A stretch of 64,000 bases of DNA from Cyanophora paradoxa CCMP329 (taxonomy: Eukaryota; Plantae; Glaucophyta), in assembly GCA_004431415.1 (NCBI GenBank), contig QPMI01000483.1:62001-126000 (forward strand), written 5' to 3'. Position numbers and translations under genes: made by a program. This document shows positions 1-20,730 of the stretch, one piece after another. Within the stretch, counting starts at the first letter, position 1. Each line of letters opens with the position of its first letter. Under the pieces are notes generated by a model, which was given only the letters and a program-made list of their open reading frames with translations, did no database searches and was not told where the DNA came from.

Positions 1-33
1 GACGAGGGGGAGAAGAAGGTCGCGTTCGACGCA

Positions 34-285
34 GTGGACGCCGCCCTCGAGGAAATCGCACTCCTCTTGGCGGCCGCCCCGGACCCAACGGAGGTCGAGG
101 GCGCTGACGCAGCAGCGAAGGGTCCCGCGCCGACGCCCGTGCCGACTTCTTTCCCCGCCGAGCTCGCCGCCGGCATCGTGGACGCCGCCCTTGAGGAGGT
201 CGCACTCCTCTTGGCGGCCGCCCCGGACCCAACGGAGGTCGAGGGCGCTGACGCAGAAGCGAAGGGTCCCGAGCCCGCGACGGAG
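34..285 (+). repeat. 144-bp (48-codon) in-frame tandem duplication
   Basis: GTGGACGCCGCCCT(C/T)GAGGA...GACCCAACGGAGGTCGAGGGCGCTGACGCAG at 34 and 178, encoding VDAALEE(I/V)ALLLAAAPDPTEVEGADA twice. Confidence 0.9.
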
Positions 286-2711
286 CTCGCTCCCACCAAG
301 TCGGTCCCCGAGACCGCCGCCGCCGAGGCTCCGGCGGACCCCGCCGCCGGCGTGGGCTGCTGCCTGGGGTACTCCTCGGGGCCGAGACGGTAGCGAGCCT
401 CGAGGTGACCGACGACGGCGCCTCCCTCGCCGACGAGGACGCGACCGTAGCGTCTAAGGAGACCCTGCGCCTCAACCGCGCTCGCCTCCTCAGCGCTAGC
501 CCCGGCCTAGACCTCACTCACTTCGGAGCCGTTGAGTTAGAGCCGGTGAAGGGCCGCGAGCACGAGCTGGGGCCCGTTCCTCTCTGGAACGTGGACGCGC
601 ACAAGCTGAAGGGCGCCGCGTCGGTCCCGCTCGACCGCGCGGCGTTCCTGTACCCAGCGCCGTGCGAGACTCACTGCGGCTGCACTGTGAGCGAGGGGCT
701 GATCGAGGTCCGGGACGAGCAGTGGTATGCCACTGCGTTCCGCTGCCCGGCCCGCACCCGCCAGACGCTCTCCTTCTTGCTTGCGGCGTTCTCTCAGCCG
801 CTCGCCACCGAGAGCACGTACCTCGGCTCGCGGACCCTCCCCACTGCGTTCCTGCAGATGCTGGGGCATGACCCGCTGTCCCAGGACACGCTGGCTCACG
901 CCTGGCCGACGCACTATTATGAAATCATGAGCCTCACGCACCAGGCCTCTCGCGTCGCCGCGAAGTGGGCCGGGGCCACGCGTGGCCGCACGCCGAGGGC
1001 CTCACGCCCGAGGGTCGCCCCGCAGTCGAGCCCGACGCCCACAAGCTTACGAAGCTTGGGACGAGTGCGTCGCTACCGCCGGCTGGCTGGAGCCATACCG
1101 CCGCCACTGGAGCATTGGCCAGCACTCGCCCGTGGCGGCCTCTCTCGAGCCGCACGAGATGACAGTGTCGGGCCGCCGCCAGCTAATCGAGCTGAGCGAG
1201 CTGTTGCCGGCACAGGACCGCCTCCGCCTTGCGTGCGCCTCGACTGTTGCGGGCTATTTCCTGCACCGCGTCGACTACGGTGCCCCGGGCACCGCCGGCG
1301 CCGTCGAGAAGATCCTCGGCCGCTTCTTTAAGTTCGCCGAGCCGCTCATGGTGGACGCGCGGGTCGACGCCTATGGCTTCGCCCTGCTGGCCCTCGAGCA
1401 CGCGATCCAGTGGAAGACCGTGGCTTGCATCGGCGGCCGCGCCGGTCCCCACGACGCCCACAAGAGCGCCGTTGCCCTGGCCGACGGGAACCCTCTTGTC
1501 CCCTCGGACTCGGAGTTCACGGAAGCCGTTCACTCGCTTGCCGTCCTGGCTGCCTCCGTTGAGGTTCCGATCCCGGGGCGGGCACGTCTCCGCTCGGATC
1601 GGGACGCCGAGGGATGGCTGCGGGCAGCGCTCGCGGAGCGTCTGACTGCGTACCGCGACGGCCGTGCCCCCGCCTTCCCGGTCGTGAGCGAGGGCGAGTC
1701 CCGCACGGTTGAACGCGTTCCGGTGGAGCCCCGCGTCGCCGCCGCCCGCGTTCTGCACCTCCGGGACCTGCACTTGTGCGACACCTGGCTGCACTGGCCG
1801 CGCCTGCACGGGGCAGAGCCTGGCACGTGGAGGGTCGGCCGCGTGCGCCCGATCACGCGCACCACGCAGTTGCCCCTGCACGGCACGACGCGAGGCGGGC
1901 AGCTGCCCACGATCGTGCCTGAGGAGCTCTACGTGCTGAGCCAGCTCGGCCCGCGCCCGCCGCTCACCGCCCTGTGCGATGCAGCCTGGGCCCGCACGGT
2001 TCCCGGATCCGCCGGGGCCGCGGAGCTGCTCCGGTACATCGAGGGGCCAAGGCGGGCGACCGGGCCCACCTCGTCATTCTATTCCGTAGGCTGCTGAAGA
2101 AGCGGGCCGGTTTCAATGACGAGGCTGTCAAGGACATGATCGCGCTCGTGGAGAAGTGGCGCACGGATGCGGGCAGCCGCACCCCCACTCCTCTCCACGA
2201 CCTGCCCACCACGCCGAAGCCGGCGTCGGACACGACGGGCGCCTACACGGCGAAGGCCGTCAGCGCGACGATCAAGGAGGCTAAGGCCTGCCTGCCGCCG
2301 CGCCCGCCTGTGAAGGCGCTCTCGCCGAGGGACCCGCCAGCGCCGGCGCGGCCGGCGCCCGTTCCTGTCCCGCCGCCTGCACCGACGGCGAAGCTCGTGA
2401 CCTTGCACGCCGCGGCAACATGGCCGCCGCTTGCGAGCCCGATGGCGCCGCGGCCCACCGCCGCTCCGACGCCGCCCGCCACTGAGCCCGCGCCTGTCGA
2501 GCCTCGCCTGAGCGAGCCGCTACTCGACGTCGCGCGCGCGACCGCGCCGGCTCCCCGGCAGGCCGCCCGTCGCGGCGAGCGTGGCCGCGGGACGGGGTCG
2601 TGCGCGTCAGCACCCGTGGGCGCGGCTCGCAGGGGCCACGAACCCGCAGCGCCCGCCGTGGGCAGGCTGAGGGGAAGACGCCGAGATGGGCGAGCGGGGC
2701 GACGGCGATGA
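34..2711 (+). CDS. Retroelement accessory polyprotein, segment 1 (frameshifted; unknown function)
   Basis: ORFs 34-393, 405-1331, 982-2097 and 1974-2711 each have a protein-like stretch that hands over to the next frame. No recognisable domain. Confidence 0.55.
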
Positions 2712-5691
2712 GGCGCCCGAGGAAGCGCCGCCGCCGCCGCCGCCGTCGGCTATCGATGAGAACCTGAGCCAGCGGGCCCTGTACGAGGCTATGGGCGTGA
2801 TGAGCGGCGTCCTCGCAGTGCCGGGGTGCCCGCCTCGGCTCTGTGAGGGGAAACAGATCACCGAGTGGCCCATGACGGCCCGGTCTGATCTCGCCCACCG
2901 CTGGAGCATCCCCTTCGACGCACTGAAGGGCACGTTCGAGGACCTGCGGGTCCCGCACCTCAAGGCGTTTCTCGCCAGCGAGAGGAGCACGCCAATCCAG
3001 AACCGCCTGGATGGGCCGCCCGTGCCGCACGAGGAGCCGCCGGAGGGCCGCGTCGCGCTCAGAGCCGATCGCACCGTTCGCCTCGCGCGGCTCAACGCGG
3101 CCGCGTTCGAGCTCTTCATGATCGCGCTGGGGCTCCGTGGCCCCGTCACGCCCCACTCCCACGATCTCCCGTTCCACCTGCATGAGTGGACGGAGCAGCA
3201 GTTGGAGCACTTCCTGACTCTGCGTTGGACGATCCCTGCCACGCGCCTGCCGCGGTGGACGCACGGGGGCCGCTTCAACCCGAGCGCGGCCGTCATCCCG
3301 CCGCAGTGGGCCCAGTACCTCTTGCGTGCTCACACCATGTTCCGCGCCGAGGCGGTTGGGACCACCGTTCCCTCCGCGGAACGCGCCGGCCTGGAGTTCC
3401 CGTACGGGGTTCGCTGGCTGCGCCGCCACCTGCAGCTAGGGACGCGCGCGCAGGAGGAAGCCGCCGAGAGCGACCCGCACAGGGGCTTGGCCCTGACCGC
3501 CCAGCGCGCGGCCTTCCAGGAGAAGGTCTTGCATGCCCTCGAGCGTCACGCTGCACGGCAGTCGTTCACGTTCGACGATGCGCTTGTGGGCACCTACATC
3601 GCCGATGAGCCTGAGCCCCGCCTCGAGCCGCTCGACATTGACCATGTCGAGAGCGAAGAGGAAGAGGGCGAGAAGGAAGAGGCGCCGGCTGCCATCCCTG
3701 CGGCGGCGCACAGGCCGTTCGAGCCGCACAAGGACTGGCAGCCGCGGCCGCTGTTCTCGTTGGCGGACCCGACGTACGCCAACGATCACAAGCTCTTGCG
3801 CGAGTACATGGACCGGAAACACGCGTTTTTCCGGCCCCTGGAATGCTATGAGCCAGGGTTCACTGAATGGGCAACGCTGCCCGCGATCAGCTACCCCTTG
3901 CGCTGGCAGCACGCCGGCGACGTTGACGAGTACAACGTCGACGTGCTCACGCTGCAGGACCAGCACATGGGCGAGCTGTGCTCAACTATGCTCAAGCGCG
4001 TCGGCCCCGCCGCGCGCGGCATAGTGAACTGGTTCTCGCTCGTAGGCCCGCCTCAGCGGCCGTTCGACGAGGATCCGGAGCTCTTCGACCTGCAGGGGCT
4101 TGCATTCCCGCACGCCGCCTGCGGCGTCAGCTTGGATATCGTGCAGTACCTCGCGGTCGGGACCCGTACCGCACAGTCTGCCGTCCCGACGTACACGGGC
4201 GCCTGGGATCTCACGCACGAGGGCACAGCCCACGCACCCGTGTGTTCGACCCTGGGCCAGGTCTCGCGGGTGCTGTATACCGCCTTCTTCCACGAAGGCG
4301 GCGGCGCGCGGAACGCCCCGCCGCCGTACATGCCGCACCCCGAGCGCCCCACCCTGCACACCTCAGTCTTGGGCGGTAACATCGCCGACCCGAACGAGGA
4401 GGACGCCAGGACGCCGTTCGCGACCCGCTTCGCGCGCGACGTCGCCGTGCTGGCCCTGCTGCGCCCGCTCGCCGACAAGCGCGTCGAGAACGTTGAGGGT
4501 CGCCTGCAGACGCGGCGCATCTACGCGCCCCGCCTCGTGGCAGGCACGGCCACGCCCGCGCCGAACGCTGCCTGCGACAAGGACGTCGCAGGGGGCGCGC
4601 CGCACCAGCCCGAGAACAAGAAGCTGTGGCTCGCAGTGACGGTCGCCCAGCTTGCGAGCCAGCCCAAGAAGAGCCACGCGAACCCGCGGCTCGTCACCGC
4701 GTTCGGTTACGAGCTGCCGCCTTTCCCGAACTCACCTCCGGGGACGTGCCCTTGGGCGCCGATCCCGGCGGAAGAGGAAATCCTCGCGACGGCCATCGGT
4801 TTTACGCTGGCCTGGCACGCGCGCTTCTTCCAGCGTCACGCGCCGGGCAAGCACCTCCGCAGCCAGCACTGGGCTGATGACTTTCTGTCGGCTGCGGCCA
4901 TGGACGTCGAGTCGGAACGCCCGGCTGACTACGTCCCCGAGATCGCTCGGGCGGTCGCCGATCACATGGATGACTTCAACAAGGTGTTGAACTCGTTCCG
5001 CTGCGTGGTGCCGGACGGTCTGATGGTGTTCATTCACGAGGCCTTCCTGACTAAGCCGACGGCCAAGCCGGACCGCGGGTCCGACGTCTTGCCTCAGGGC
5101 AAGAAGGTCTTCGACGCGGACGCGAGGCCGACGTACCCGGACGGTCATCCCACGCTTGCGTGGAAGTTTGGCCCGAACAATGCGGTCGTGCCGGACCACG
5201 AGGGTCGTGCGGCGATCTGTGGGCGGATCCTGCTCGCGATGCTGCAGGGCTTCCAGTATCCCCGCATCCCGCTGCTCGCGCAGCGGGTGGACAACTGTGC
5301 GCCCCTGAACGCCGCCATGCCCCAGAACGTGGCCGAGGTCTTCAGGGCCCTCTTGCGCACTATGACGAGGGATGAGTGCGCCGACTCGGATGCCCGCGCG
5401 CTGGCGGACGGCATCCGCGCGTACCTCACAAACATGCCGCACGGTCTCGGGTACCAGCGTCTTGAGCTCGGCTCGCCCCCGATGGCCGGCGCCGAGGACG
5501 CGTGGCCCGCCGGCGATGACCTTGGCGCCGGGGCAAGAGTGGGATACAGCGCCACCTTGAGGCCGCCCGCGCCGCCGAGGAGCTGGAGAACTGTCCCGGG
5601 AACTTCCCGCTGGGGCTCATCTTTACCGATGAGGCTATACCCCTGCGGCCTCAGTTCGAGACGATGCTCCGTTCGCTCTACGCCGATCTGA
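2686..5691 (+). CDS. Retroelement accessory polyprotein, segment 2 (~1000 aa, unknown function)
   Basis: Long intronless ORF with globular composition (W/F/Y/H-rich). It appears to shift into the next ORF's frame near 5535 (GIQRHLEAARAAEELENCPGNFPLGLIF... precedes MLRSLY). Confidence 0.7.
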   Translation: MGERGDGDEAPEEAPPPPPPSAIDENLSQRALYEAMGVMSGVLAVPGCPPRLCEGKQITEWPMTARSDLAHRWSIPFDALKGTFEDLRVPHLKAFLASERSTPIQNRLDGPPVPHEEPPEGRVALRADRTVRLARLNAAAFELFMIALGLRGPVTPHSHDLPFHLHEWTEQQLEHFLTLRWTIPATRLPRWTHGGRFNPSAAVIPPQWAQYLLRAHTMFRAEAVGTTVPSAERAGLEFPYGVRWLRRHLQLGTRAQEEAAESDPHRGLALTAQRAAFQEKVLHALERHAARQSFTFDDALVGTYIADEPEPRLEPLDIDHVESEEEEGEKEEAPAAIPAAAHRPFEPHKDWQPRPLFSLADPTYANDHKLLREYMDRKHAFFRPLECYEPGFTEWATLPAISYPLRWQHAGDVDEYNVDVLTLQDQHMGELCSTMLKRVGPAARGIVNWFSLVGPPQRPFDEDPELFDLQGLAFPHAACGVSLDIVQYLAVGTRTAQSAVPTYTGAWDLTHEGTAHAPVCSTLGQVSRVLYTAFFHEGGGARNAPPPYMPHPERPTLHTSVLGGNIADPNEEDARTPFATRFARDVAVLALLRPLADKRVENVEGRLQTRRIYAPRLVAGTATPAPNAACDKDVAGGAPHQPENKKLWLAVTVAQLASQPKKSHANPRLVTAFGYELPPFPNSPPGTCPWAPIPAEEEILATAIGFTLAWHARFFQRHAPGKHLRSQHWADDFLSAAAMDVESERPADYVPEIARAVADHMDDFNKVLNSFRCVVPDGLMVFIHEAFLTKPTAKPDRGSDVLPQGKKVFDADARPTYPDGHPTLAWKFGPNNAVVPDHEGRAAICGRILLAMLQGFQYPRIPLLAQRVDNCAPLNAAMPQNVAEVFRALLRTMTRDECADSDARALADGIRAYLTNMPHGLGYQRLELGSPPMAGAEDAWPAGDDLGAGARVGYSATLRPPAPPRSWRTVPGTSRWGSSLPMRLYPCGLSSRRCSVRSTPI

Positions 5692-8600
5692 ATGTCGCGA
5701 TCCGCCTCGCGCGCCCGATCGACTGGGAGACGGACGACCCCGTGCTCCCCGACTGGGACGTTGAGGCTCTGCGCCCGGCGCTGATGTGGGACGCGGTCCA
5801 GAACAAGGGCGCCGCGCCCTCGGCCCGGCGCAGCCTGACTGCGACGGCGGCTGTCGATAAGGAGGCCGAAAGCCTTCTGGTTCGCACGCCGTACCAGCCG
5901 ATCTACGAAGGAGCGGTCCGCGCGACGTGGGCGGGCGTGCGGTTCCAGCCGCCCTCAACCATCGTCGGCGGGCTCGCGGACGACCCCGCCGAGGCGGCGC
6001 CATCCGCCACCCCGTCGGCGCCCGCGCCGGCGCAGGCCGCTGCGCAGACCGCCGCGCCGCCGACGGCGCCGCAGCAGGCGCGGCCCCGGCGCAACGCGGG
6101 CCAGGCCGTTGGCCGAGGCGGCCGCGGGCAGGGTCACCAGCGGGGCGGCCGGCACCGCGGTCGCGACGGCCGAGGCCACCGTGACCGTGGCGGCGACCGC
6201 GGCGGTGGCCAGGCGCAACCCGCACAACCCGCTGTCGACCCGAACGACCCGTTCGGGCTGGATGCGTTCCTCGCGCGGCAGCAGGGGTATGACCCCAAGA
6301 CCATGCGCGTAACCGTCTCGGACGGGAAGGTGAAGGTCGAGCGGATCGCCGAGAGCGCTCCGCCAGACCAAGCCCCGCCGGCTGAGACTCCCTCCCGGAC
6401 CTTGATGCCGCCGCCCAGCTCGAGCCGCCAGGCCGAGGCAAGCTCGAGCCGCAGGGACGACACGGCCAGTCGCGCGTCGCAGGCCCGCCGGACCCCTGAG
6501 CGGGCCTCGTCTCAGCGCCGCTCGCGCACACCCGAGCCGCGCCGAGCCCCGTCCAGTCGCCGCTCTCGCACCCCAGACAGGCGCGAGACGCGGGGCCCCT
6601 CCACGCGCCGCGAGCGCTCCCCGGAGCCCCACCGGCAATCCCGGGCGCCGCCGCCGTCCCGCCGTTCGTTGGAACGCCGCGATCGCGAGGGCTCCCGACG
6701 CCCTTCGCCGGACCGCCGGGACCGCGAGGCCTCCCGCCGCCGCTCCCCGGACCGCCGTGATCGCTCGCCGCCGCGCCGCGACCGCAGCCCGCCGAGCCGA
6801 CGGTCCACGGCTCGCGACACTCGCGACAGGCGGAGCCCTCGCCGAGGCTCGCGGGAACGCCGCCGGAGCCGAACACCGTCCCGCTCTAGCTCCCGCTCGC
6901 GCTCGCGCGATCGGGGCCCGAGCCGGAGCCCCCGCCATGACGATAAGCGGCGCAAAAGCTCGAAGAAGGGCTCGCGCGACCGCGCCTCGCCGCGAGACCG
7001 CCGCAGCCCTCGCAGCAGCCAGTCCTCTCGCCGCCCGCCGGACCCGCCGCGCGGCGCCGTAGACGCTGCGTACAAGCGGCACGAGAACGACGCCCGCCTG
7101 CGAGGCTGCCCGCCCACATTGCGCGAGCTCTTCGACATGGTCTGGAAGGCGCAGTACGCTGAGATGCCAGACTCGCTCTCGGCGTCCGCGCGAGCTGAGC
7201 AGGCCACCGCGCTGGTCCTGATCAAGCTCCAGAACCAGATGGACGCTCAGTCCGCGTCGTCCTCGGCCCGCGCCGCCGCGCCACCATCGGGTGGGCAGCC
7301 GCCGACGGGCGGACGCAACGAGCGCCAGCAGCCCTTTCTAGAGGGGCCTGAGGGGCAGAGCGAAGCCGGTCCGCAGTCGGCGGCGCCGTCCAAGCCTGCG
7401 GAGGGTCGCGCCTCCATCTCTCAGGCCCAGGAGCGGTCATCGCGTGCGAGCCAGGCCGAGCCGCCGCGCGCAGACCAGTCGACGCCGGAGCAGCCGCGCG
7501 CCTCAGTGGCCGCGCCGCGCGCCTCCGCCGCCACGACTTTCAACCCCCAGGCTGACGTCCCAGCAGGGGGCCTCCTGCAGTTTGTGCGCGAGTGCTCGAG
7601 CTGCCGCGACGTGAAGATCCGGGGCCAAGGGGTCACGGAATTGGGGCTTTGGCTTCAAACAGTCGAGCGCCAGATCCGCACCGCCGCTAGCCACGCCGAG
7701 ACGCGCGCCAAGCCCGGCGGCGCTCAGAAGGTCTCAGACGAAGCCTTCGCCCAGGCAAAGCAGGCCGCTCGGCGGGCCCTGGAAGACGTCTGCCGCGCCC
7801 TCCGGGCCGGCATCGATATGCAGATCAGCCTCTCCGCTGGGGAGACGGGCATGATGATCTCGCTCCTCCCAGACGGGCCCCGTGCCGATCTCGAGGCTCT
7901 GCGGGCCACGCTCGATCGCACCAAAGACTGGCGAGCCTTGCTTGAGCGCGAGCGCCAGCACGAGGCTCGCGTGGCAATGCAGGCCGCGGCAAAAGCCAAC
8001 CCAAAGCCCTTCTTCGCGGTATACACCGTCGCAGAAGCGTCGTCACCCCGCGGGCACGAGGCCCGCGCGCCCTGTGACCTTCCCGCCCACTTGCATACGC
8101 CGGCGTCGGTCCGGGCCGCTGTGCCGGTGCCGGCGGACGAGAAGTACATCTCGATCCGCCGCGTCCAGACGGTCGTCCACGAGCCGCCCGCTCAAACAGT
8201 CGCGCCGCCGGCGCCAGCCGCGCCGCCCGCCCCGGCCCCACCAAAGAGCCGCGAGCCTGCGCCGGCCTGGGCCCGCCGCCTGCTGCACAAGCTCGGGCCG
8301 CGCTCGACCGTGCTGGTCTTCAACTGGCTGTCGAACCCCGCGCAAATGCTGCAGGTCGATCCAAAGACCCTGGAGCCCGCCTTACGCGCGGTGCATCAGG
8401 CGATCATGGACCGCTACGGCATCTCGATGCGCAAAACGGGCTACAAGGCCCCGCCACGGCCGACTCGCGCGTGGTTCTCGGGTTCAGCGCCGACAGCGGC
8501 GTTCGCCCCGCAGAACGCGCTCGAGGCCGCCGCGATCATTTACCCCGAGGGCCTGACCTCCGACGAGGAAGCTCTCATGCCCGCGGGCCACGCCCTGGGC

Positions 8601-9398
8601 TCCAAAAACCGCCCGTCCCTCGCCGTGCCCCGCCCGGCAGAGGAGACGCCGCTGGGAACGCGCGCCGGCTATGACCCGCCCAGCGACGAGTTGCTCTACG
8701 CCAACCGCCACGGCCCGGGCCCGCGCAAGCGGACCAAGCCCTCGCCGTTGGCCGACCAGGCAGAGCAGCGCCGAGTCGCCGAGCGAGCCGCGGCTCGCCA
8801 GTCCCGGCCCCCATCCCCAACCGCAAGCGCAACGGACCTGTCGGGTCCACCCGCGCCGCCGGAACCAGAATTCCACGTCCGCCGCGCCCGACCTAGCTTC
8901 CCGCGCGACCGGGCCCTGGAATTCTTCCGGCCAAAGACACTGCACATTCACGGCAGCATTGCTATGCGCCTGCCGAACGGCCGCTCCGGCGCTGAACGGC
9001 CCGCTCGCATTGTTGTCGACACGGGCGCCCAGGGAACTGTAGTTCCCCAGGAAGTCCTCGACCGCCTGCCGCCCGACGAAGTCAATTACGTCGAGGGCCA
9101 CACGATAGTCCGCGGTTTCATGGACCGGGACAAAATTCGTTGTCGCCGCGCCGACGTAGTCTTCGTTCTGGGCTCGCTCCGCTTCTGCCGCCGCGTCTTC
9201 GTCGTCCCGCGCGGCGCCATGGGCGTTGAGCCGGACATTCTGCTCGGCCTGGACGCGATCCAGGCCGTCCACGGCCAGATCGACACGACGCTGTCCGGGT
9301 GGTGCCTCCGGGCCCGTGACCACCTGCACCGCGAAGTCGTCGTCCCTTTTCGGCTCCGGACCAGCTTGGGATCCTGGTCCGAGTCCTGGGACCAGTAA
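5664..9398 (+). CDS. Gag-position protein with RGG and RS-rich domains fused to a retropepsin protease
   Basis: RGGRGQGHQRGGR tract, long RS/RD tract, then RIVVDTGAQGTVV...DILLGLD aspartic protease motifs. Confidence 0.8.
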   Translation: MLRSLYADLNVAIRLARPIDWETDDPVLPDWDVEALRPALMWDAVQNKGAAPSARRSLTATAAVDKEAESLLVRTPYQPIYEGAVRATWAGVRFQPPSTIVGGLADDPAEAAPSATPSAPAPAQAAAQTAAPPTAPQQARPRRNAGQAVGRGGRGQGHQRGGRHRGRDGRGHRDRGGDRGGGQAQPAQPAVDPNDPFGLDAFLARQQGYDPKTMRVTVSDGKVKVERIAESAPPDQAPPAETPSRTLMPPPSSSRQAEASSSRRDDTASRASQARRTPERASSQRRSRTPEPRRAPSSRRSRTPDRRETRGPSTRRERSPEPHRQSRAPPPSRRSLERRDREGSRRPSPDRRDREASRRRSPDRRDRSPPRRDRSPPSRRSTARDTRDRRSPRRGSRERRRSRTPSRSSSRSRSRDRGPSRSPRHDDKRRKSSKKGSRDRASPRDRRSPRSSQSSRRPPDPPRGAVDAAYKRHENDARLRGCPPTLRELFDMVWKAQYAEMPDSLSASARAEQATALVLIKLQNQMDAQSASSSARAAAPPSGGQPPTGGRNERQQPFLEGPEGQSEAGPQSAAPSKPAEGRASISQAQERSSRASQAEPPRADQSTPEQPRASVAAPRASAATTFNPQADVPAGGLLQFVRECSSCRDVKIRGQGVTELGLWLQTVERQIRTAASHAETRAKPGGAQKVSDEAFAQAKQAARRALEDVCRALRAGIDMQISLSAGETGMMISLLPDGPRADLEALRATLDRTKDWRALLERERQHEARVAMQAAAKANPKPFFAVYTVAEASSPRGHEARAPCDLPAHLHTPASVRAAVPVPADEKYISIRRVQTVVHEPPAQTVAPPAPAAPPAPAPPKSREPAPAWARRLLHKLGPRSTVLVFNWLSNPAQMLQVDPKTLEPALRAVHQAIMDRYGISMRKTGYKAPPRPTRAWFSGSAPTAAFAPQNALEAAAIIYPEGLTSDEEALMPAGHALGSKNRPSLAVPRPAEETPLGTRAGYDPPSDELLYANRHGPGPRKRTKPSPLADQAEQRRVAERAAARQSRPPSPTASATDLSGPPAPPEPEFHVRRARPSFPRDRALEFFRPKTLHIHGSIAMRLPNGRSGAERPARIVVDTGAQGTVVPQEVLDRLPPDEVNYVEGHTIVRGFMDRDKIRCRRADVVFVLGSLRFCRRVFVVPRGAMGVEPDILLGLDAIQAVHGQIDTTLSGWCLRARDHLHREVVVPFRLRTSLGSWSESWDQ

Positions 9399-10408
9399 AG
9401 CTCCCCGTCGGAGAGGCCCTCGTCCCATGCACGCTCAATGGGCAGGGCCCGGCAACGCGTGAGTTGCCGCACCTCTACGTCGAGCCGTCGCCGGAGTCCC
9501 CGCAAGCCTTGGGCGTACTCTGCCCTTACCAGCTGCATAATCACCCGGGAGACAAAATGTTTCACGTGCGGTTGTGCAATCCTGGCCGGCAGCCGGTAAC
9601 CCTGCCGCTAGGATCGGTAGTAGCGGTCGCTTCGGCGGTCGCCCTACCGCCTGGTGATTTTGAGTACGAACCTGAGCAAATGCCTTGTAGTGCGAGTGCA
9701 TTGACAGACCTCTTGATTCGCCGGCTGCGAATCGTGCCTGCCAAACGCCGCACTGGACTCCGCCACTTTAATAGAAAAGCACGCATGCTTGGCGCGGCAT
9801 ATGAGCCCGCCAAAGACGTTGAGAAAATAATCTCCACCCTACGTTCTGTCGTAGATGAGGCGGAAAAGCAGCGCGCTCTGTCTAGCGCAGCGCCTGCTGA
9901 GCCCGCCGACCCACCCCGCGCACCGCCCTACGACGTCGACGATATAGTCGTCACGTTTGGCGAGCTGCCCTTCGACACAGCCGACCGGCCGTTGCAGGAC
10001 CTTGATGCTATGAGCATCATTAGCCTCGACGACGATGCTATGAGCACGTCGTCACGAAGCGCGTCCCCAACGCCGGCCCCGATCACAGGCCCCTCGGTCG
10101 ACGAGTTCGTCGCCGCAGTCGAGGCAGTGTCCGTCCCAGAGACGCCACCCTGCGCTCGACCTTCCCCGGTCTCTCCGAAAAAGCGGAGCGCGACTTGCTC
10201 GATGCAGTCCGCGCCATGCGCGGCGACGTTACGGTCCGCAAGGCCGCACCGGTCGCCGACGCCGAGGCCCCACCCCAGAGTGTGGTCACAGCCTCGCTTT
10301 CGGCCCGGCCCGATGCCCCACCCCCTACGACTGCAGCACCCGACGCGAAGCCCGCTGAGGCACCGCGGCCGGTGCCTAATGCAGAGGAGGAGTGGCAAGA
10401 GCTGCTGA
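9374..10408 (+). CDS. Pol segment: degenerate dUTPase-like domain plus linker
   Basis: VLGPVKLPVGEALV...FHVRLCNPGRQPVTLPLGSVVAVA resembles the dUTPase-like fold found between PR and RT in some gypsy elements. Catalytic motifs are not evident. Confidence 0.45.
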   Translation: MVRVLGPVKLPVGEALVPCTLNGQGPATRELPHLYVEPSPESPQALGVLCPYQLHNHPGDKMFHVRLCNPGRQPVTLPLGSVVAVASAVALPPGDFEYEPEQMPCSASALTDLLIRRLRIVPAKRRTGLRHFNRKARMLGAAYEPAKDVEKIISTLRSVVDEAEKQRALSSAAPAEPADPPRAPPYDVDDIVVTFGELPFDTADRPLQDLDAMSIISLDDDAMSTSSRSASPTPAPITGPSVDEFVAAVEAVSVPETPPCARPSPVSPKKRSATCSMQSAPCAATLRSARPHRSPTPRPHPRVWSQPRFRPGPMPHPLRLQHPTRSPLRHRGRCLMQRRSGKSC

Positions 10409-11715
10409 AGAAGATTCCTGAGCTCGGCTCTCACCCGTCAATCACGACGGCGCAGAAAGCCGAACTTCACGCGCTCCTGCGGCGCTACAAGGATGTCTTC
10501 GCAGACAAGGTCGAGGCCAAAGAGGGCACCAGCAACCTGCTCTATTACGAGCACGTGATCAAACTCACGACTCGCCTTCCGGTGTTCACGCCTCCGCGGC
10601 GTATGAACCCGCACGCCGAGGAACACGCCCGCAAGGAAATTCAGAAACTCCTTGAGCTTGGGCTGATCGAGCCCTCCCAAGCGGCATATGGCTCGCCGGT
10701 AGTGCTGGCCCCCAAAAAGGACGGCACTTGGCGTTTCTGTGTCGACTATCGGAGGCTGAATCAGATCACCGAGCGGGACGTGTTTCCCCTACCCCGCATA
10801 GACGACCAGCTCGAGCGCCTCCGCGGCTCGATGGTCTTCTCGACTGCTGACGCGACTGCCGGCTTCTGGCAGCTGCCTCTGCACCCCGGCTCCCGAGCCT
10901 ACACTGCATTTGTGGTCCCCTGGGGTCACTTTCAGTGGAAGGTTACGCCGTTTGGGGTCACGAACGGGCCCGCGGCATTCTCCCGCGCGATCACTGCGAT
11001 CCTGGGCCCCTTGCTGACCACCTGCGTCGTCGCGTACATCGACGATATCACGGTCTTCTCACCGTCCATCGATCAGCACCTTCTAGACTTGAAGGCGCTC
11101 TTCGAGACGATCTCTAAGGCGAACCTGCGCCTGAAGCCGTCGAAGTGCCGCTTCTGCGTGCCTGAAATCGACCTTCTCGGCCACCGCATCTCCGCCGAAG
11201 GGATCCGCCAGGACCCTGCGAAGACCAAGGTGATCACGGACTGGCAGACGCCGAAGAACGCGGACGAGCTCCGCTCGTTCCTCGGCCTCGCCGGCTACTA
11301 CCGCCGCTTTGTCGAGAACTTCTCCAAAGTGGTGCACGCCATGCAGCGCCTTCTATTGAAGGACGCCGTCTGGAGTTGGCCAGAGGACGGCCCCGCCGAC
11401 CGCGCCTTTAAGGAGCTGAAAGAACTCCTGGGCCGCGATATTATATTGCGGTTCCCGGACTTCTCGAAGCCCTTCATTCTCCAGACGGACGCCAGCACCT
11501 ACGCTATCGGCGCAATTCTGAGCCAGGCCGACGACAAAGGCGTCGAGCGGCCGCTCGCGTTCATCAGCCGCACGCTGCTGCCGGCCGAGATGAACTACTC
11601 CGCTACGGAGCTGGAGTGCCTCGCAGTAGTCTGGGCCATTAAGTATTGGCGCCACTATCTGCTGGGCGGCCCCAGTTCCTGGTGCGGACCGACCACCACG
11701 CCCTCCAGTGGCTGA
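10195..11715 (+). CDS. pol: Reverse transcriptase and RNase H (Ty3/gypsy)
   Basis: PKKDGTWRFCVDYRRLN, FPLPRIDD, GFWQ, PFGVTNGPAAF, YIDDI, LGH, FLGLAGYYRRFV, TDAS, NYSATELECLAVVWA. Confidence 0.97.
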   Translation: MLDAVRAMRGDVTVRKAAPVADAEAPPQSVVTASLSARPDAPPPTTAAPDAKPAEAPRPVPNAEEEWQELLKKIPELGSHPSITTAQKAELHALLRRYKDVFADKVEAKEGTSNLLYYEHVIKLTTRLPVFTPPRRMNPHAEEHARKEIQKLLELGLIEPSQAAYGSPVVLAPKKDGTWRFCVDYRRLNQITERDVFPLPRIDDQLERLRGSMVFSTADATAGFWQLPLHPGSRAYTAFVVPWGHFQWKVTPFGVTNGPAAFSRAITAILGPLLTTCVVAYIDDITVFSPSIDQHLLDLKALFETISKANLRLKPSKCRFCVPEIDLLGHRISAEGIRQDPAKTKVITDWQTPKNADELRSFLGLAGYYRRFVENFSKVVHAMQRLLLKDAVWSWPEDGPADRAFKELKELLGRDIILRFPDFSKPFILQTDASTYAIGAILSQADDKGVERPLAFISRTLLPAEMNYSATELECLAVVWAIKYWRHYLLGGPSSWCGPTTTPSSG

Positions 11716-13118
11716 AGACGCTGGACCCGACGACGGGCCGCCTCGGTCGCTGGTCCCTGCTCTTGCAGGCCTACGACTTTGAGATCGTCTACCGCCCTGG
11801 CAAGCAGAACGGGGGTCCCGACGCGTGCTCGCGTCTCCCTAAGGACCACCCCGTCTGGCAGCCAGGCGGTGCAGACGGTTCCTCGTCCAAGCCCGCGGCC
11901 TACAAGGGCGCCGAAGGCTTCGGCATCCCGCAACATGCTGTAGGGGCTGAGCCTGAGGATCCCGACGTCCCGCTGGGCATCTTTAGGATGCAGCTGGGCC
12001 CGACCGAGCGGGCCCTGCGCCAGCTCGCCAACTCCGCCGGCTTCCGCGCGGAAGCCCCAGCCGAGGGTGGCCGAGCCGCTAGACGCCGAGCGCCCCGGGC
12101 GGCGCCTGCGAGCGCCCCCTCTTCCCCGCCGGGCCGCTCCTCTTATGCAGAGGAGGAGTCGCGGCCCCCTGTGCCAGCCAGTGCTCCTGAGGCCGAGCCC
12201 GACGCCGGCGCCCCTGAAGCGCCCGCGCCCGAGCCTGAGGGTGAGGCTGGCGGTGCTGCGGAAACCGATTCCGACGCCGAGCCCCCGCCGCCAGAGCGCG
12301 CGCCGCGACGCCTGCCCCGCGAGCTCGCCAAGCTTGCTGCGTCGGCTGGGTTCGCTGAGGCCAAGGCCTCCGCCTCGGCTACTGACGCCGCCACGCGCAA
12401 GCGAGCGCGGGCCGCCCCAGAGCGCTTCGCGCCTCCCGCGCCAGAGTCGGTCTCGCCGCCCCCGAAACGACGAGAGCCGGGCCCGGCGCCCGCTGTCGAG
12501 GAGCGCGAGGCTCCCTCGGACGCGGAGATGCCCGACGCCCCTGAGGGCGACCTGGGCGCCCCGGCCGCGCTGCTAGAGGACGCTCACGCAGAGGCCGAGG
12601 CCTCGGGCGAGATCGATGACGAGTCGCTGCCGGAAGGGCCTGTCCCCTCCGACGCCTGCGACGCTGACGGCTTCCCCCTCGCTCTTGCGGAGCGAGTCCC
12701 GAAGCGCTCGGAAACCGGGCCCCGTCGGTGGGGCGCCAAGGGATTTGCCGAGCCGCGGCCCCTGCATCCCGACGCGCTCTTCCCTCGCGGCCCCGCCTTG
12801 AGGCGGCAGCCTCGAGATGAGTACAACACGCGCCACTGGCGCTCCCCGGTCGACCCCTCGGATCGGCCGGTGCCGATTCATATTGAGTGGGAGCCGGAGG
12901 ACCCTGAGGGCGAGCCGCCTCCCGGGCCTCCGCGCCGACGCTCGCTCTCCCCGGAGACTGCTCGCCACCAGATCCGCGTTCGGCCGGTCCCCCGGACCCC
13001 AAGCCAGCGCCGCGGGCTCGAGGTCGCCCCTCTGCCCGCGGGCAGGCTTCCGACGACGCCGCCCCGCTCGAGCCTGAGACGGTCGCCGCCGAGGCCGCTG
13101 CCCCGCAGCGGTGGGTAG
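11646..13118 (+). CDS. RNase H C-terminus plus ~400-aa Pro/Ala/Glu-rich linker
   Basis: TDHHALQWL...RLGRWSLLLQAYDFEIVYRPGKQNGGPDACSR followed by low-complexity sequence. Confidence 0.85.
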   Translation: MAPLSAGRPQFLVRTDHHALQWLKTLDPTTGRLGRWSLLLQAYDFEIVYRPGKQNGGPDACSRLPKDHPVWQPGGADGSSSKPAAYKGAEGFGIPQHAVGAEPEDPDVPLGIFRMQLGPTERALRQLANSAGFRAEAPAEGGRAARRRAPRAAPASAPSSPPGRSSYAEEESRPPVPASAPEAEPDAGAPEAPAPEPEGEAGGAAETDSDAEPPPPERAPRRLPRELAKLAASAGFAEAKASASATDAATRKRARAAPERFAPPAPESVSPPPKRREPGPAPAVEEREAPSDAEMPDAPEGDLGAPAALLEDAHAEAEASGEIDDESLPEGPVPSDACDADGFPLALAERVPKRSETGPRRWGAKGFAEPRPLHPDALFPRGPALRRQPRDEYNTRHWRSPVDPSDRPVPIHIEWEPEDPEGEPPPGPPRRRSLSPETARHQIRVRPVPRTPSQRRGLEVAPLPAGRLPTTPPRSSLRRSPPRPLPRSGG

Positions 13119-13168
13119 AACTCGACCCTAGAGGCCGGGACGTTCGCCCGCCGTGCAAGCCGGTCTTC

Positions 13169-14829
13169 GTGGATACCGTCCTCGACGCGTGGGCCTGCGG
13201 ACCCTCGCCAGCCGTCGATGGGGCGCTCCCCGACGCGCTGCGCCGTATGTTCCCGCCCGAGAAGCGCAAGCGTCTGCTCGCCGCTCAGAAGGAGGATTCC
13301 TTCTGCAAGAAGCTTCTCGCCTTCCGCGCAGAGGGCGAGAATCCAACTGTCTGTACCCGCGGCTCGAGGCGCGACGCAGATCCCTGCTCGCCCAGCTGCG
13401 CTCACTGCCTGCGGGCCAAGGAGCGCTTTGCACGCCTGGCCGGCGAGTTCAGCCTGGCCGACGACGGCGTCATCGAGCGCAACCCCTTGGTCCCTGCCGG
13501 CCGGTTCCTACCCGTCTTGCCGGACGCTTGGATCGACAGGGTGCTCTACGCCTATCACGAGGGCTGGGCCCATCGAGGCGCGCCCGTGATAGCCCGTCGG
13601 ATCGCCCTGCGGTTCTGGTGGCCTGGCATGTACGCCTCCATCGCTCGCTTTGTGCGGTCGTGCCCGCACTGTCAGTTCGCGAAGGCCGCGAAGCCCCGCC
13701 GTACCGCCATTCAGGTGATACAGCCTTCGGGCAAGGGAGACCTGTGGCAGGTGGATATCTTCCACTTGGATATGCACGAAGACGGTTCGCGATACATCAT
13801 CGCGTACGTCGACGCATACACCAAGTTCTGCTATATCTACCCGCTCTCCCGTATCTCCGGCGAGGCCTTGCTCGCCACCGCGATCGACTTCTATACGCAC
13901 GAGGGCGTGCCCGCGCGCATCCTGACGGACCGCGGGTCCCAACTCGTTGGGGGCGCGTGGAACGCGTTCTTCAAGGAGAAGGGTACCCGGTTCGTGCACG
14001 CGGCCGCCTACCACCACGCCTCGAACGGCGGCGCCGAGCGCCTGGGCGGAGTCTACAAGACTCTCGCTTACGCCATGTGCCGTGAGCACAAGCGGCCGCT
14101 CTCTGACTGGCCTCTTTACAACGCCGATATCGTTCTCGCGTTGCGGACCACCGTGCACTCCGCCACCGGGTTCTCCCCGATGGTCTTGCACCGCGGTTCT
14201 GAAGTGCACCTGCCCTGCGAAGTGCGCTTCGGAGCCGGCGTCCGCTTCGTGAACCCCGACCACACGCACCCGGCTGATTACCTTCTCGCGATGACGCGAG
14301 CTGCCGCGAGCGCCGACGCTGCCTCGCGCGAGTACCGTCGGTTCTATCGGAACCGCATGGTTGCTCGCACCGGCAACCCGCCTCATCGTCGCCGCTTTGA
14401 GGTTGGCGACAAGGTATTGTGCTGGATGGGCGAACACAACAAAGGGCTGTACAATTCGTGGTCGGGCCCTACACTGTGACTGGTGTTAACCCTGGCGGTT
14501 ACACCTACACGGTCAAGGGGTCGGCTAAGCCCTACTCCGCCAAGGACGATGCCCGTACCCGTCCTCTGCGTGAGACTGTTGCCCACATCGACTGCATGCT
14601 TCCGTTCCGCACGCGTCTCTCCGAGTCTCAAGCCCGTCCCCGCGTTGGTCGGCCTCGGAAGACTGCTGTGAACGCCGACGAGCCGGCGATCGACCCCGCA
14701 CTCGCGGACTCGCCCGCTCAAGAACAAAATCCACCTCTCGCCCCTGACGTCGACGCCGAGGGCCCCGAGCGGGCTGCCGAGGGCGACGAGGTTGAGATGG
14801 ATGACGCGATTTTGGTCGACGACCTGTGA
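13169..14829 (+). CDS. Integrase (HHCC zinc finger, DDE core, GPY/F motif; frameshift near 14465)
   Basis: YHEGWAHRG...WWPGM...CPHCQ; WQVDI...ILTDRGSQ...NGGAERL; TGFSP; GPYTV continues in the 14419-14829 frame. No chromodomain seen. Confidence 0.95.
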
Positions 14830-15505
14830 GAAGCTCGTCCCATTGCTGTTCCCTTTGCGATCGCTGTGCTTGCGCCGTGGGGCAGATTTCTTTGCCCGCT
14901 TTGCCTCAGCCCTGGCTTCCGAGGTGGGACGTGGGTTGGCTGGTGGCCAATCACGGGGCGCCATCTGGGCCTTTCGTTCCATTTTCTGGGATCTGGGCCC
15001 GTCGCTCGTGGAGAGTGGCTGGGTGTAGGCCTCCCGGGTGCCTGCGGGTCCGTGAGGGGCTCGAGGTTGCTGGCTGGGGGTGCACTCAGTCGTGCCCTAT
15101 CCTTTCGTTGGGCCTGATGGGCGGCCCGGATACCTCCTCGCTGGTTTCTTCCCGAGGCGGTGAAACTTCCCATCCGTGCCACTCTCCTTCGGCTCTCGCC
15201 GTTGGAGCGAGTTTGGGCCAGCTTTTGGGGGTTTCGAGTTCTATGCTTTTCCATCTTTCGAGCTTGGCCTGGGGTTGCCTAGGTACATGCACTATGCTGG
15301 TATCGGCTCCTATTTCGGTCGCGAGCTATGCTACCTGGCATATCTGGTTGCTGACGACGGACATTCTACTTCGAGAGGAGTTCACTCGCCGCCGCCCTGT
15401 CGCTGCCGTGGTTGGTGCACACCCCGGCGGTGGGTGGACGCCCCGTCGAGCATGCAGACTCGACGTTCGGCTTGGCGCGGTCCGGTGCGAGGACGCACCG
15501 TATGC

Positions 15506-15516
15506 AGAGTGAGGAG
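15506..15516 (+). promoter_or_regulatory. Polypurine tract (plus-strand primer)
   Basis: AGAGTGAGGAG immediately before TGT, preceded by the hairpin CGGTGCG-AGGA-CGCACCG. Confidence 0.65.
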
Positions 15517-15517
15517 T

Positions 15518-15773
15518 TGTCGCGTGCCGCGATTCCCTCGGATTAGGCTAGCCGGCAGTCTATGCGTAGCCGCTAGCCCTAGTCTAGTGCTATCGAGCAG
15601 CTAGCTCTAGCACTCTCTGTATTCTGACTTAGCGCCGGGCGCGACTCCGTTTGGGGGTACGCGATCCCTGGACGGGTACACTTGTGAATAGACCACTTGT
15701 GCTCCCAGCTACAGCCCCAGCCCGTGCGTGACCGCACGGACGCTGCACCGGGTGGGAATCCTCTCATCCGACA
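15518..15773 (+). repeat. 3' LTR (256 bp)
   Basis: Starts TGTCG, ends CGACA (5-bp terminal inverted repeat), follows the PPT and ends exactly at the GC drop. The 5' LTR is not in the window for confirmation. Confidence 0.75.
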
Positions 15774-16040: not shown

Positions 16041-16889
16041 ATGACCGAGTACAACCGAGTCCAGTTACCAATCTACTCACTGGGCTCTCCAGCAATCCAT
16101 ATGAGGCAGCATGAAGTTAGCGATGCCATTGCTGGATTAGAGTCCACTGAGCGTCCAAACTCAACTAATGCATTTGATCAGCGATCAGTGATTCGCTGTA
16201 AAGAATTACGCGCAGATAAAAACTCTGGGGTTGTCAAAACAACTCGATTACTGGTTACGAACGCAAATTTCTCCCAGCCCATAACAGGAGGAGTTGACTC
16301 ATATAGTGTTGACCTTCGAAGCATAAACTATGATCAAAACACTGCTGCCCTCACTGTGCGCTCCGGAGGAGCAGCTATTACCGGAGCCTGCCGAGTTAGT
16401 GGGGGCCTATCATCATCGATTGCCATCAATGATGTCCCAGACTTTTCATTAGAGAATGCCGAAAATCGTAAACGAGTTCGCATGTATGTACCTTGCTGTG
16501 ACCTTCCCTATGCACAAGCTCTAGTAGAAGTTGAAATAACCATAGCTAATTCAAGTACACCAAATGGTCTGGATGGTGAGAGGTTGCTTTCAAACAGAGA
16601 AATCCCTAAAGCATTACAATCTCTCTGTCAGGATCAAAATGACCAGATAGGGCATGTGTATACGTTCTTTGTGCAACGTCTTGGACATGCTGGGCGGGGA
16701 TACGTAGTTCGTAATATTAATACAAGGCACCTTTTCGATTTATATGCTACTGCGATAGGCCGATACTCTATCCTAATCATCGGCTATCGCTCCGATGTGG
16801 CTGCATCAGTGGCTACTAGAGGGCTGAACGTTGATCCAGCACTGAATAATATGTATGAGGAAGGCAATCCGGAAAATCCTATACCTTAA
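16041..16889 (+). CDS. Virus fibre-like protein, paralog 1
   Basis: ALTVRSGGAAITGACRVSGG beta-repeat-like motif and C-terminal GRYSILIIGYRSDVAA. Clearly paralogous to the next ORF. Confidence 0.6.
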   Translation: MTEYNRVQLPIYSLGSPAIHMRQHEVSDAIAGLESTERPNSTNAFDQRSVIRCKELRADKNSGVVKTTRLLVTNANFSQPITGGVDSYSVDLRSINYDQNTAALTVRSGGAAITGACRVSGGLSSSIAINDVPDFSLENAENRKRVRMYVPCCDLPYAQALVEVEITIANSSTPNGLDGERLLSNREIPKALQSLCQDQNDQIGHVYTFFVQRLGHAGRGYVVRNINTRHLFDLYATAIGRYSILIIGYRSDVAASVATRGLNVDPALNNMYEEGNPENPIP

Positions 16890-16917
16890 ATGAAAGTTTT
16901 ATCTTCTGTTTTCTAAA

Positions 16918-17841
16918 ATGGAAGCTGTTGAAAGAATAGTAGTTCCATCGTTGACCCTCGCCGCTCCAGCCAACCACGTCCTGCAGCATGCAGTTTCAGA
17001 CGATGTCCCCGGCCTGCAATCAACTGAGCAGCAGCCAACTCTAAACACCTTCCGAGATAATCACATCATACGTTTAGGAGAGGTTAGATGCGACAAAAAT
17101 AATGGAGTGGTCAAAACAACAAATCTTGTCGTAACAAACGCAAACTTTAATGCGCATTATGGGGATCCTGATAGCTATGATGATGCTAACAAGGTTAACA
17201 CTTTTACCTATGAATCAAGATTAGGGGCTGTTACCTGCAGGTCCGGAGGTGCTTATATTGGAGATGGCCTGAGAGTGGGTGGAGCTGCTTGCGCCCCTAT
17301 ATTTGTAAATGATCAACCTAACCCTGAAAACACTAATGAAAGAATCAGAACGTATGTTCCTGGTATGAATTTGCCTTATATCATCAAAGTCTTCACGCTA
17401 AACATAAATGAGCAAACATCGATCGTAGATAACGTTCAGCCACTCGGAAATCATTTCAAGAGTGTTGTTGATATTCCCCCGGATATCTATTTCCTTTGTA
17501 GGAGAAACGATGCTCTCCGGCCAAACATAGCTGTTTTAATTAATCCTATTGACAATTTTGGTGTCGCTTTCCATTCTACCCCAGTGGGGGTTGAAGATTA
17601 CCAGTTTATTGTGAGGGCTACGCTTATGGGCGCCTACAAAAATATTCTATTTGCTGAAAGAACAGATGTGATTGCAAGCGGGGTCAAGTATGGTGAGACC
17701 TTCAATTCGAATCGTTACTTTCCAATTGGAGGGGCTGATCCCAACCATAGAATCTTTGTTTTTATATATATTACCCCTTGTAGATGGATCTGCTCCGTAA
17801 ATGCATGGACATGTTCCATCTCAACGTCACCAGCAAATTGA
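16918..17841 (+). CDS. Virus fibre-like protein, paralog 2 (true stop probably ~17750)
   Basis: Shares QH.VSD...GL.STE, DKN.GVVKTT.L.VTNANF, RSGGA.I, R.R.YVP..LPY and G.Y...L...R.DV.A with paralog 1. CCCAACCATAG near 17741 would give a PNP* end like paralog 1 with one added base. Confidence 0.6.
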   Translation: MEAVERIVVPSLTLAAPANHVLQHAVSDDVPGLQSTEQQPTLNTFRDNHIIRLGEVRCDKNNGVVKTTNLVVTNANFNAHYGDPDSYDDANKVNTFTYESRLGAVTCRSGGAYIGDGLRVGGAACAPIFVNDQPNPENTNERIRTYVPGMNLPYIIKVFTLNINEQTSIVDNVQPLGNHFKSVVDIPPDIYFLCRRNDALRPNIAVLINPIDNFGVAFHSTPVGVEDYQFIVRATLMGAYKNILFAERTDVIASGVKYGETFNSNRYFPIGGADPNHRIFVFIYITPCRWICSVNAWTCSISTSPAN

Positions 17842-19709: not shown

Positions 19710-19929
19710 CGTGTCTGCACGCGGCAGAGACGGAGGAAACCGACGCGGAGCCGAGAGGCGGAGGCGAGGAGGCGAGGGATCCGGCGCGGCGTCGACGCGC
19801 GACGGCGGCCGGGACCGGGGCGAAGTGAAGCGGGCGGGGAGGTGGTGCCGGCGACGAACGAGCGTCGGCTGGCGAGCGGGCGGGGCGTGGCGAGGACGGC
19901 GGCGTCGGGTGAGAGCCGGGGCGCCGCGA

Positions 19930-20730
19930 GTAGATCACCGGCCGGGCTTCCACGCGGGAAGGCCGGCTGCGAGCTAAGATCTCCTCCGGGGCTCGTAGCG
20001 TCCGCAGCGAGGCGGAGGCGAGGGAAGAGCCGAGGGGAGAGGGCGGGAAAGGGCGACGGGGGCGGTTCGAGGCGCCGCACGTAGATCACCGGCCGGGCTT
20101 CCACGCGGGAAGGCCGGCTGCGAGCTAAGATCTCCTCCGGGGCTCGTAGCGTCCGCAGCGAGGCGGAGGCGAGGGAAGAGCCGAGGGGAGAGGGCGGGAA
20201 AGGGCGACGGGGGCGGTTCGAGGCGCCGCACGTAGGTCACCGGCCGGGCTTCCACGCGGGAAGGCCGGCTGCGAGCTAAGATCTCCTCCGAGGCTCGTAG
20301 CGTCCGCAGCGAGGCGGAGGCGAGGGAAGAGCCGAGGGAGAGGGCGGGAAAGGGCGACGGGGCGGTTCGAGGCGCCGCACGTAGATCACCGGCCGGGCTT
20401 CCGCGCGGGAGGGCCGGCTGCGATCTGAGGTCTCCGCCGAGGCTCGTGGCGTCCGCAGCGAGGCGGAGGCGAGGGAGAGCCGAGGGGAGAGGGCGGGAAC
20501 GGCGGGTAACGGACGGCGCGGCGTCGTCGAGCGACGGCGGCCGGGAAAAGGAATGACGGGTGCGGAAATCGATGTCGGCGACGTATGGACGTCGGCCGAC
20601 GGGCGGGAGTGGGCGGGAAAAGCGACGAAGATGGAGGTCCGAGGAGCCGAGGGAGGGTCGCCGACCGGGCTTCCACGCGGGAAGGCCGGCTGCGATCGGT
20701 GATCTCCGGCGAGGTTCACGTGTCCGCAGC
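19930..20730. repeat. ~151-bp GC-rich tandem repeat
   Basis: GTAGATCACCGGCCGGGCTTCC recurs at 19930, 20081, 20232 and 20381, with a degenerate copy near 20660. Confidence 0.92.

Follow-up and report, generated by a model that had tools for sequence, protein, structure and literature searches.

Analysis of a window of 64,000 nucleotides (nt) of the glaucophyte Cyanophora paradoxa CCMP329 (contig QPMI01000483.1, positions 62,001 to 126,000) showed the presence, at its beginning, of a multi-copy long terminal repeat (LTR) retrotransposon belonging to the Ty3/gypsy group. The first open reading frame (ORF1) of this element very probably comprises ~3,840 codons and includes ~3,200 residues of orphan cargo between a likely capsid–nucleocapsid part and the protease (PR), with pol likely expressed via a predicted −1 frameshift; this assessment refers to architecture and expression, and not to the role of the cargo. 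The term cargo is used here for the ~3,200 residues of conserved orphan sequence located between the nucleocapsid and the protease. The element is young.

Organization of the element

The features of the element in the window are listed below. The second family is represented by the gene models P0028 and P0033, which are 44–45% identical over the in-window part; the reverse transcriptase is abbreviated as RT.

1–9398, + strand: in-window part of ORF1, 3,134 codons; continues ~705 codons 5′ of the window and ends at a real stop after the protease
17–286, + strand: two 126-nt direct repeats, an acidic helix plus an 18-residue motif; the motif is identical in the second family
447–2154, + strand: block A, ~570 amino acids (aa), globular composition, no known family; 52% identical (295/564) in the second family
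2155–2754, + strand: linker rich in Pro and Ala, with an RG-rich tract at its end; also RG-rich in the second family
2755–5961, + strand: block B, ~1,070 aa, made up of B1, an acidic spacer and B2; no known family; where the second family's model covers it, 47% and 51% identical
6070–7010, + strand: RGG box followed by an Arg/Ser tract; predicted to be disordered and RNA-binding
7011–8873, + strand: region C, ~620 aa, partly ordered and partly of low complexity; belongs to no known family and was observed in family 1 alone
8997–9260, + strand: retropepsin protease (DTG) in the frame of ORF1 (Pfam)
9344–9385, + strand: predicted −1 frameshift signal, heptamer C CCT TTT (9344–9350) and hairpin (9352–9385)
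9347–14829, + strand: ORF2, pol, 1,828 codons, −1 frame
10711–11190, + strand: RT, in ORF2
11398–11774, + strand: RNase H, in ORF2
Between RNase H and integrase, + strand: low-complexity spacer, in ORF2
13520–13687, + strand: integrase zinc finger, in ORF2
13733–14014, + strand: integrase core, in ORF2
14464, + strand: GPY motif, in ORF2
15504–15773, + strand: purine-rich tract and candidate 3′ LTR (15518–15773), TG...CA, with a 5-bp terminal inverted repeat

Coding capacity of ORF1

A codon model trained on the PR, RT, RNase H and integrase genes of the element revealed a single co-oriented coding chain from base 1 to 14826 on the + strand, every frame change along which is a −1 step. The preliminary description of this DNA, made from the letters of the window, had reported co-oriented and frame-chained coding: the single co-oriented chain was confirmed, while the breaks of frame are most likely assembly errors, since these positions are filled in short-read contigs, with the exception of the junction after the protease. 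One extra base was found in the short-read contigs, in 4/4 runs, at 377, 971, 1057, 2042, 2588, 2670 and 5529, as well as at 10134, 11669, 12988 and 14459, the total being at least these places; seven different public runs in all stand behind these checks. All seven breaks in 1–9398 are losses of a single base, each filled by one more G. Read with X at the seven breaks, 1–9398 yields 3,134 codons with one stop, the last, and the other five frames contain 55, 62, 17, 45 and 65 stops. The junction at 9336–9486 has gap-free coverage in 4/4 runs, and the stop at 9396–9398 and the change of frame after the protease are therefore real.

In comparison with the merged contigs, 1–9398 contains seven single-base gaps and only three listed substitutions (4610, 6915, 7364). 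We infer that the window copy is intact, from contigs that merge copies. The possibility of a decayed pseudogene was rejected in view of seven single-base gaps versus three substitutions in 9.4 kb, and that of intron-containing host genes was rejected as well, because the ‘introns’ of the gene models differ in place between copies. The GC content is 63–78% per kb across bases 1–15000; at third codon positions it is 0.83–0.86 in blocks A, B and C versus 0.82 in RT–RNase H and integrase.

Gene models of other copies run across the same sequence. The model P0036, belonging to a sister subfamily, extends from the first Met through window codon 2007, crossing all seven breaks in one alignment of 92% identity; P0020 spans block B up to the same PR stop, at which P0021 ends too. 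Seven models share the same start Met, and P0036 meets window base 1 at residue 706, which gives ~3,840 aa for ORF1 and ~5,650 aa for the predicted fusion with pol. The distance between the start codon and the far end of the candidate 3′ LTR is ~17.9 kb, and the coding region measures ~17 kb.

Gag region

Sister gene models add ~705 residues 5′ of base 1, in which a capsid-like domain and a CCHC knuckle were found. The knuckle is located at residues 511–527 of the model P0009 (Pfam zf-CCHC, E 1.7e-6), and a second Cys/His cluster is present at residue 445; the second family also has a CCHC knuckle (Pfam, E 0.005). Since the knuckle is ~190 residues 5′ of base 1, the extra coding sequence lies between Gag and the protease, as in Burro elements, and not upstream of Gag; the earlier statement that no CCHC knuckle can be recognised is corrected.

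The AlphaFold model of the N-terminal part is confident at residues 31–176 and poor beyond (mean predicted local distance difference test score, pLDDT, 50.5). No Pfam gag family matched this part. In structure alignment against 48,161 chains, most of the matches listed cover only a 65-residue helical hairpin, and four of the best 50 start before residue 50. The two with the lowest root-mean-square deviation (rmsd) among these four are the Copia capsid (Z 7.9, rmsd 3.0, 82 aligned residues) and the capsid-like domain of PEG10 (Z 7.9, rmsd 4.3, 84 aligned residues), ranking 45th and 46th of the best 50; a second-look alignment gave mostly generic helical hairpins. Tentatively, the model suggests a capsid domain that carries a hairpin insertion.

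The long helical hairpin inserted in the capsid-like domain occupies residues ~96–160 of ORF1 (P0009) and has a pLDDT of 77–90; as modelled, it would project from the shell or bridge the shell.

Composition and conservation of the cargo

Block B is flanked by an RG-rich tract on one side and by the RGG box and a 245-residue Arg/Ser tract on the other. The latter contains 36 RS/SR dipeptides, with 30% Arg and 20% Ser in 245 aa. RGG, RG-rich and RS tracts are typical of RNA-binding proteins. Region C is 89–100% identical in the sister subfamily.

Between the two families, 109/270 residues are identical in the capsid-like region and 108/292 in the linkers, compared with 295/564 in block A, 118/249 in B1 and 235/457 in B2. 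The identity of A and B taken together (648/1,270, 51%) exceeds that of the capsid-like region (40%; Fisher p 0.0016) and of the linkers (p 2e-5), and 23 of the 29 Trp residues are kept. These values are protein identities from one pair of families, not dN/dS, and cover Gag to part of B, inside which the models of the second family end; the remainder of B and all that follows it (RS tract, C, PR, pol) lie beyond the comparison. Judging from these protein sequences, selection acts on the cargo.

Stretches of 18, 14 and 10 residues are identical between these families of about 45% likeness; they occur in low-complexity sequence at window positions ~64–120, 208–264 and 360–400 and at the start of ORF1, and are candidate protease sites, binding motifs or RNA-level signals.

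A hydropathy scan detected no hydrophobic stretch of transmembrane length in the cargo: the best 19-residue value, 1.77, belongs to the acidic repeat, and values within A and B do not exceed 1.31. One N-glycosylation sequon is present in the ~2,260 residues of A, B and C. With no membrane-spanning stretch and a single sequon, identity with Env was rejected, and a class I or III envelope protein is unlikely.

Searches for relatives of the cargo

None of the five ORF segments located wholly upstream of the protease matched anything in Pfam. For A, B and C nothing significant was found in Pfam, PHROGs or NCBIfam, which agrees with the preliminary description of these blocks as having no known family, and no significant match was found among the sequences of solved structures. 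For region C, the negative results cover these family libraries and the solved structures and do not extend to the large protein collections. No chromatin, nuclease or methylase family was matched in the cargo in Pfam and NCBIfam scans. MATH, BIR, BCL2-like, SUMO-like and ankyrin domains had no Pfam match in any segment; remote forms may escape such a scan. The AlphaFold model of block B has a mean pLDDT of 31.6, too low for meaningful Foldseek results.

The searches with block B gave seven matches of 7,991 scored and 11 matches among 1,835,955,588 representatives, and those with block A (a profile search covering proteins of 95–1,008 aa) and the Gag linker gave 5 of 7,996 scored candidates and 13/80 matches, respectively. 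All of them are pieces of the Cyanophora element, five of the 11 block B matches having been placed in it by identity alone (82–99% to the query), and all accession-bearing matches are gene models of C. paradoxa. Accordingly, the searches with blocks A and B showed no relatives outside Cyanophora-type records. Viral contigs contained no matches to block B and none among eight candidates for block A; in metagenome contigs, 0/49 candidates matched block B, and 8/54 candidates matched an RT query, the best being 40% identical. A protein atlas gave no usable match for part of B or for A, which shows neither absence nor novelty.

Affiliation and copies of the element

The order of domains in Pol, namely, PR, RT, RNase H (RH) and integrase (IN) according to Pfam, is that of Ty3/gypsy elements (Metaviridae). 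Among solved structures, RT–RH is closest to Ty3, with 258 bits versus 155 for the next entry and ~100 for the foamy and murine leukaemia virus types; no BEL RT was present among the matches listed, and the best relative of the RT–RNase H is Ty3 RT (structures 4ol8 and 7q5b, E 1e-75). The integrase contains an H2C2 finger, the core and the GPY/F motif, the latter being a mark of gypsy integrases. Because of the domain order, RT affinity and integrase, the element is assigned to Ty3/gypsy, and its designation as a giant member of this group in the preliminary description was borne out. No Pfam match to a chromodomain was found after the integrase (14401–14826, E 0.1).

Named models of the element are located on 22 contigs, of which 19 belong to family 1 and 2 (tig00000658 and tig00020849) to the second family, and one carries a Gag-only model that is 62% identical. 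Among the 19 contigs of family 1, 17 have insert sequence and two have Gag-only models. Consecutively numbered models place gag and A beside B on five named contigs. The order in the second family is the same as in family 1: Gag, knuckle, A, RG-rich linker and B. Other copies carry the upstream coding sequence in the same order as the window copy, and no LTR lies between the cargo and pol; the earlier proposal that this sequence belongs to the element is thus supported.

The depth of the contigs steps up towards pol at 8121 and 9174 (57, 73 and ~100 in one run; depth was not taken as copy number), and the steps coincide with the sister subfamily reaching 98–100% identity, which suggests recombinant subfamilies with a common pol. 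A joint skipping 338 bases at 916–1255, seen in 4/4 runs at ~1/8 of the local depth with a side of only 27 letters, perhaps represents an internally deleted subfamily.

In the available parts of the C. paradoxa genome paper, LTR elements account for 1.77% and unknown repeats for 11.5% of the genome, and the element is not described there (PMC6704402). Among publications naming Cyanophora paradoxa, retrotransposon and gypsy, none concerns this element as far as titles and the beginnings of abstracts indicate, and the accessible text of the Troyka paper (PMC12440569) mentions neither Cyanophora nor algae. No description of the element was found in the literature; Repbase and subscription journals were outside this search, so a catalogue entry may exist.

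Protease junction, pol and 3′ end

PR is followed by a real stop, and a slippery site precedes pol, whose frame is −1; the coding sequence is therefore organized as two ORFs with a predicted fusion of ~5,650 aa, instead of the single polyprotein of ~4,900 aa proposed before. Pol is open in its frame from 9320. Over the 4,962 codons of the two ORFs, no in-frame heptamer of the form X XXY YYZ occurs other than C CCT TTT, which falls within their 26-codon overlap, for which the chance by position alone is ~0.5%. The hairpin at 9352–9385 folds better than 195 of 200 shuffled sequences (z −2.54). A programmed −1 shift after the protease is predicted from these sequence features. A pol placed in the −1 frame, together with heptamers of this type, is frequently encountered among LTR elements of animals (28/51 in the available part of PMC5009743).

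No dUTPase-like remnant, as occurs in Burro, was detected between PR and RT. Between RNase H and integrase, within 11820–13157, there is a low-complexity spacer of ~450 codons, and a Cys-rich patch precedes the integrase finger. After the GPY motif, at 14647, there is a motif that we take to be AT-hook-like.

The candidate 3′ LTR is 256 bp long. Its right junction is backed by flank contigs diverging at 15773, and its left end is a candidate only. The sequence 15518–15773 matches only itself, so that the 64-kb window contains no 5′ LTR, as stated in the preliminary description for the sequence up to base 1.

Comparison with known elements

Ty3 has the closest solved RT–RNase H and the same order PR–RT–RH–IN. 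Unlike in the Cyanophora element, Gag of Ty3 comprises a few hundred residues and its PR is located in pol behind a +1 shift. A PR in frame with Gag and then a −1 shift, as in the Cyanophora element, is an arrangement similar to that of the alpharetroviruses.

The layout of the element parallels that of the Burro/GYPSM1 elements of planarians, in which, according to the accessible parts of their description, an N-terminal Gag with CCHC knuckles and thousands of in-frame residues precede the protease and then RT–RH–IN (PMC6431247). The cargo is new: in Burro it is recognisable (MATH, BIR, BCL2-like, SUMO-like and ankyrin domains, Env; PMC6431247), while in Cyanophora it has neither a known family nor a membrane segment. 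ORF1 of Burro comprises 4,873–5,140 aa and includes PR through IN in the ORF of Gag, whereas in Cyanophora the predicted fusion is ~5,650 aa, with a real stop and a −1 frame between PR and RT (PMC6431247). The internal region of Burro reaches 25 kb, versus a coding region of ~17 kb and a candidate LTR of 256 bp in Cyanophora; the latter is thus below the 20-kb line for ‘giant’ elements, yet its predicted Gag-Pol is longer than that of Burro (PMC6431247). The hosts are also different, a planarian and an alga.

In the available part of their description, the GAG-ENV-POL errantiviruses of nematodes, bryozoans and flatworms are similar as Ty3/gypsy elements with an extra gene between gag and pol (PMC13524379). 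Their insert is a gB-type fusion glycoprotein, in contrast to the Cyanophora cargo with no membrane anchor and one sequon in A, B and C. Ogre elements of plants, also large gypsy elements with extra coding sequence of unknown function, owe their size mostly to LTRs of 1.9–6.5 kb and one or two extra ORFs, whereas in Cyanophora it is due to in-frame coding inside the Gag–protease protein (PMC6431247). Owing to its architecture and orphan domains, the element may represent a new lineage.

Expression and possible role of the cargo

In the proposed scheme, most ribosomes would stop after PR, and A, B and C with the RGG and RS tracts would be made one-to-one with the capsid and then separated through cleavage by the protease that the element encodes. 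A smaller share of ribosomes would shift, giving the fusion through which RT, RNase H and integrase are added. Because the frameshift site follows the cargo, the whole of the latter would be produced at the capsid level. None of 24 sequencing runs listed as matching was an RNA data set, which carries no information about expression.

Several observations weigh against this architecture and expression. The models of the second family stop inside block B, and no connection to PR and pol was observed for them. The capsid matches (Z 7.9) fall under the caution level of the aligner itself, and in Foldseek the Gag model had no match at E 0.001. Many copies are merged in the short-read contigs, which present the sequence of the family, not that of this single copy. 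With the 5′ end of the element outside the window, neither the 5′ LTR nor the primer site was observed. At the frameshift site, three of the four windows folded no better than shuffled sequences (z −0.5 to −0.9); the hairpin begins 1 nt past the heptamer, its strong stem 6–7 nt past it; and pol could start alone at an in-frame Met (9557, 70 codons into its frame). As to the cargo, neither a fold nor a family was obtained for A, B and C, and their role is read from composition and position only.

Tentatively, the cargo may be responsible for handling the element's own unspliced RNA of at least 18 kb, namely, its binding, export or condensation, and for helping to build a particle able to hold it. 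This role is favored because of the RGG and RS tracts, the predicted production at the capsid level and the analogy with Cer1, which encodes its own export factor, CERV (PMC10309623, in the part available). It is also conceivable, with somewhat less assurance, that the families of 45% identity represent a virus-like lineage of glaucophytes, which would have independently evolved a Gag-Pol longer than that of Burro, with two to three folds new to retroelements, as a self-contained machine made at the capsid level for exporting and packaging an 18-kb RNA, disarming silencing, or leaving the algal cell unenveloped.

Counter-defence, in which A and B released by the protease would act on host DNA methylation or RNA silencing, is a doubtful function of the cargo. 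In the host, methylation and silencing affect both retrotransposons and DNA transposons (PMC12344493), and the cargo of Burro is thought to meddle with host systems (PMC6431247), both according to accessible parts of these papers. The family has multiplied recently, with three substitutions relative to the merged contigs in 1–9398, but no chromatin, nuclease or methylase family was matched in the cargo. Moreover, proteins in conflict with the host usually change fast, whereas the conservation of A and B is higher than that of the capsid region.

It is improbable that the cargo is a transmission apparatus, i.e., the outer shell, spike or entry proteins of a virus leaving the cell: Env is indeed located between gag and pol in Burro (PMC6431247) and in the GAG-ENV-POL errantiviruses (PMC13524379), the cargo would be made at the capsid level, and the capsid-like domain has the predicted 65-residue hairpin (pLDDT 77–90), but a membrane-spanning stretch is absent and one sequon occurs in ~2,260 residues. 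Expression of pol with no frameshift, from a spliced or internally started message, is quite improbable, although the Met at 9557 lies 70 codons into the pol frame and the host is intron-rich (PMC6704402, in the part available), since the sole slippery heptamer of both ORFs is situated in the 26-codon overlap. That the cargo is a captured host or viral sequence with no role, or another element that became nested in the space from gag to pol, is hardly credible: LTR elements do capture ORFs (PMC6431247), but the cargo keeps one reading frame over 3,134 codons with a codon use like that of pol, its order is kept in two families of ~45% identity with conservation above that of the capsid region, the matches of A and B in the collections searched are all copies of the element and include no donor gene, and no repeat flanks the cargo inside the window.

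In the literature compared, giant in-frame inserts in Gag are represented by animals only, with recognisable cargo; the case of a glaucophyte suggests that the gag–protease junction is a general site for cargo. The element supplies ~2,200 residues in three orphan blocks for structural work, two of which were shown to be more conserved than the capsid region. It also bears on how LTR elements pass the limit of ~10 kb on RNA export, reverse transcription and packaging (PMC6431247, accessible part). On at least 22 named Cyanophora contigs, gene models that at present count as host genes are fragments of this group of elements.

Neighbouring features

Downstream of the element, two tandem intronless paralogous ORFs (16041–16889 and 16894–17841, + strand) are 35% identical. 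The stretch that contains them has a GC content of 43–45% and an observed/expected CpG ratio of 0.71 versus 1.0–1.2 elsewhere; it is a divergent multi-copy repeat into which the retrotransposon was inserted. These ORFs had no significant Pfam or PHROG match (best E 0.01), and for the first of them no relative was found in viral contigs; possibly, they are part of some other mobile element or of an endogenous virus.

Arrays with a period of about 151 bp occur at two separate places, 19877–20717 and 55062–55708, and further arrays have periods of 33/66 bp (53229–54092) and 40/79 bp (40479–41316). An inverted repeat of 304 bp is present at 47328–47631/48366–48669.

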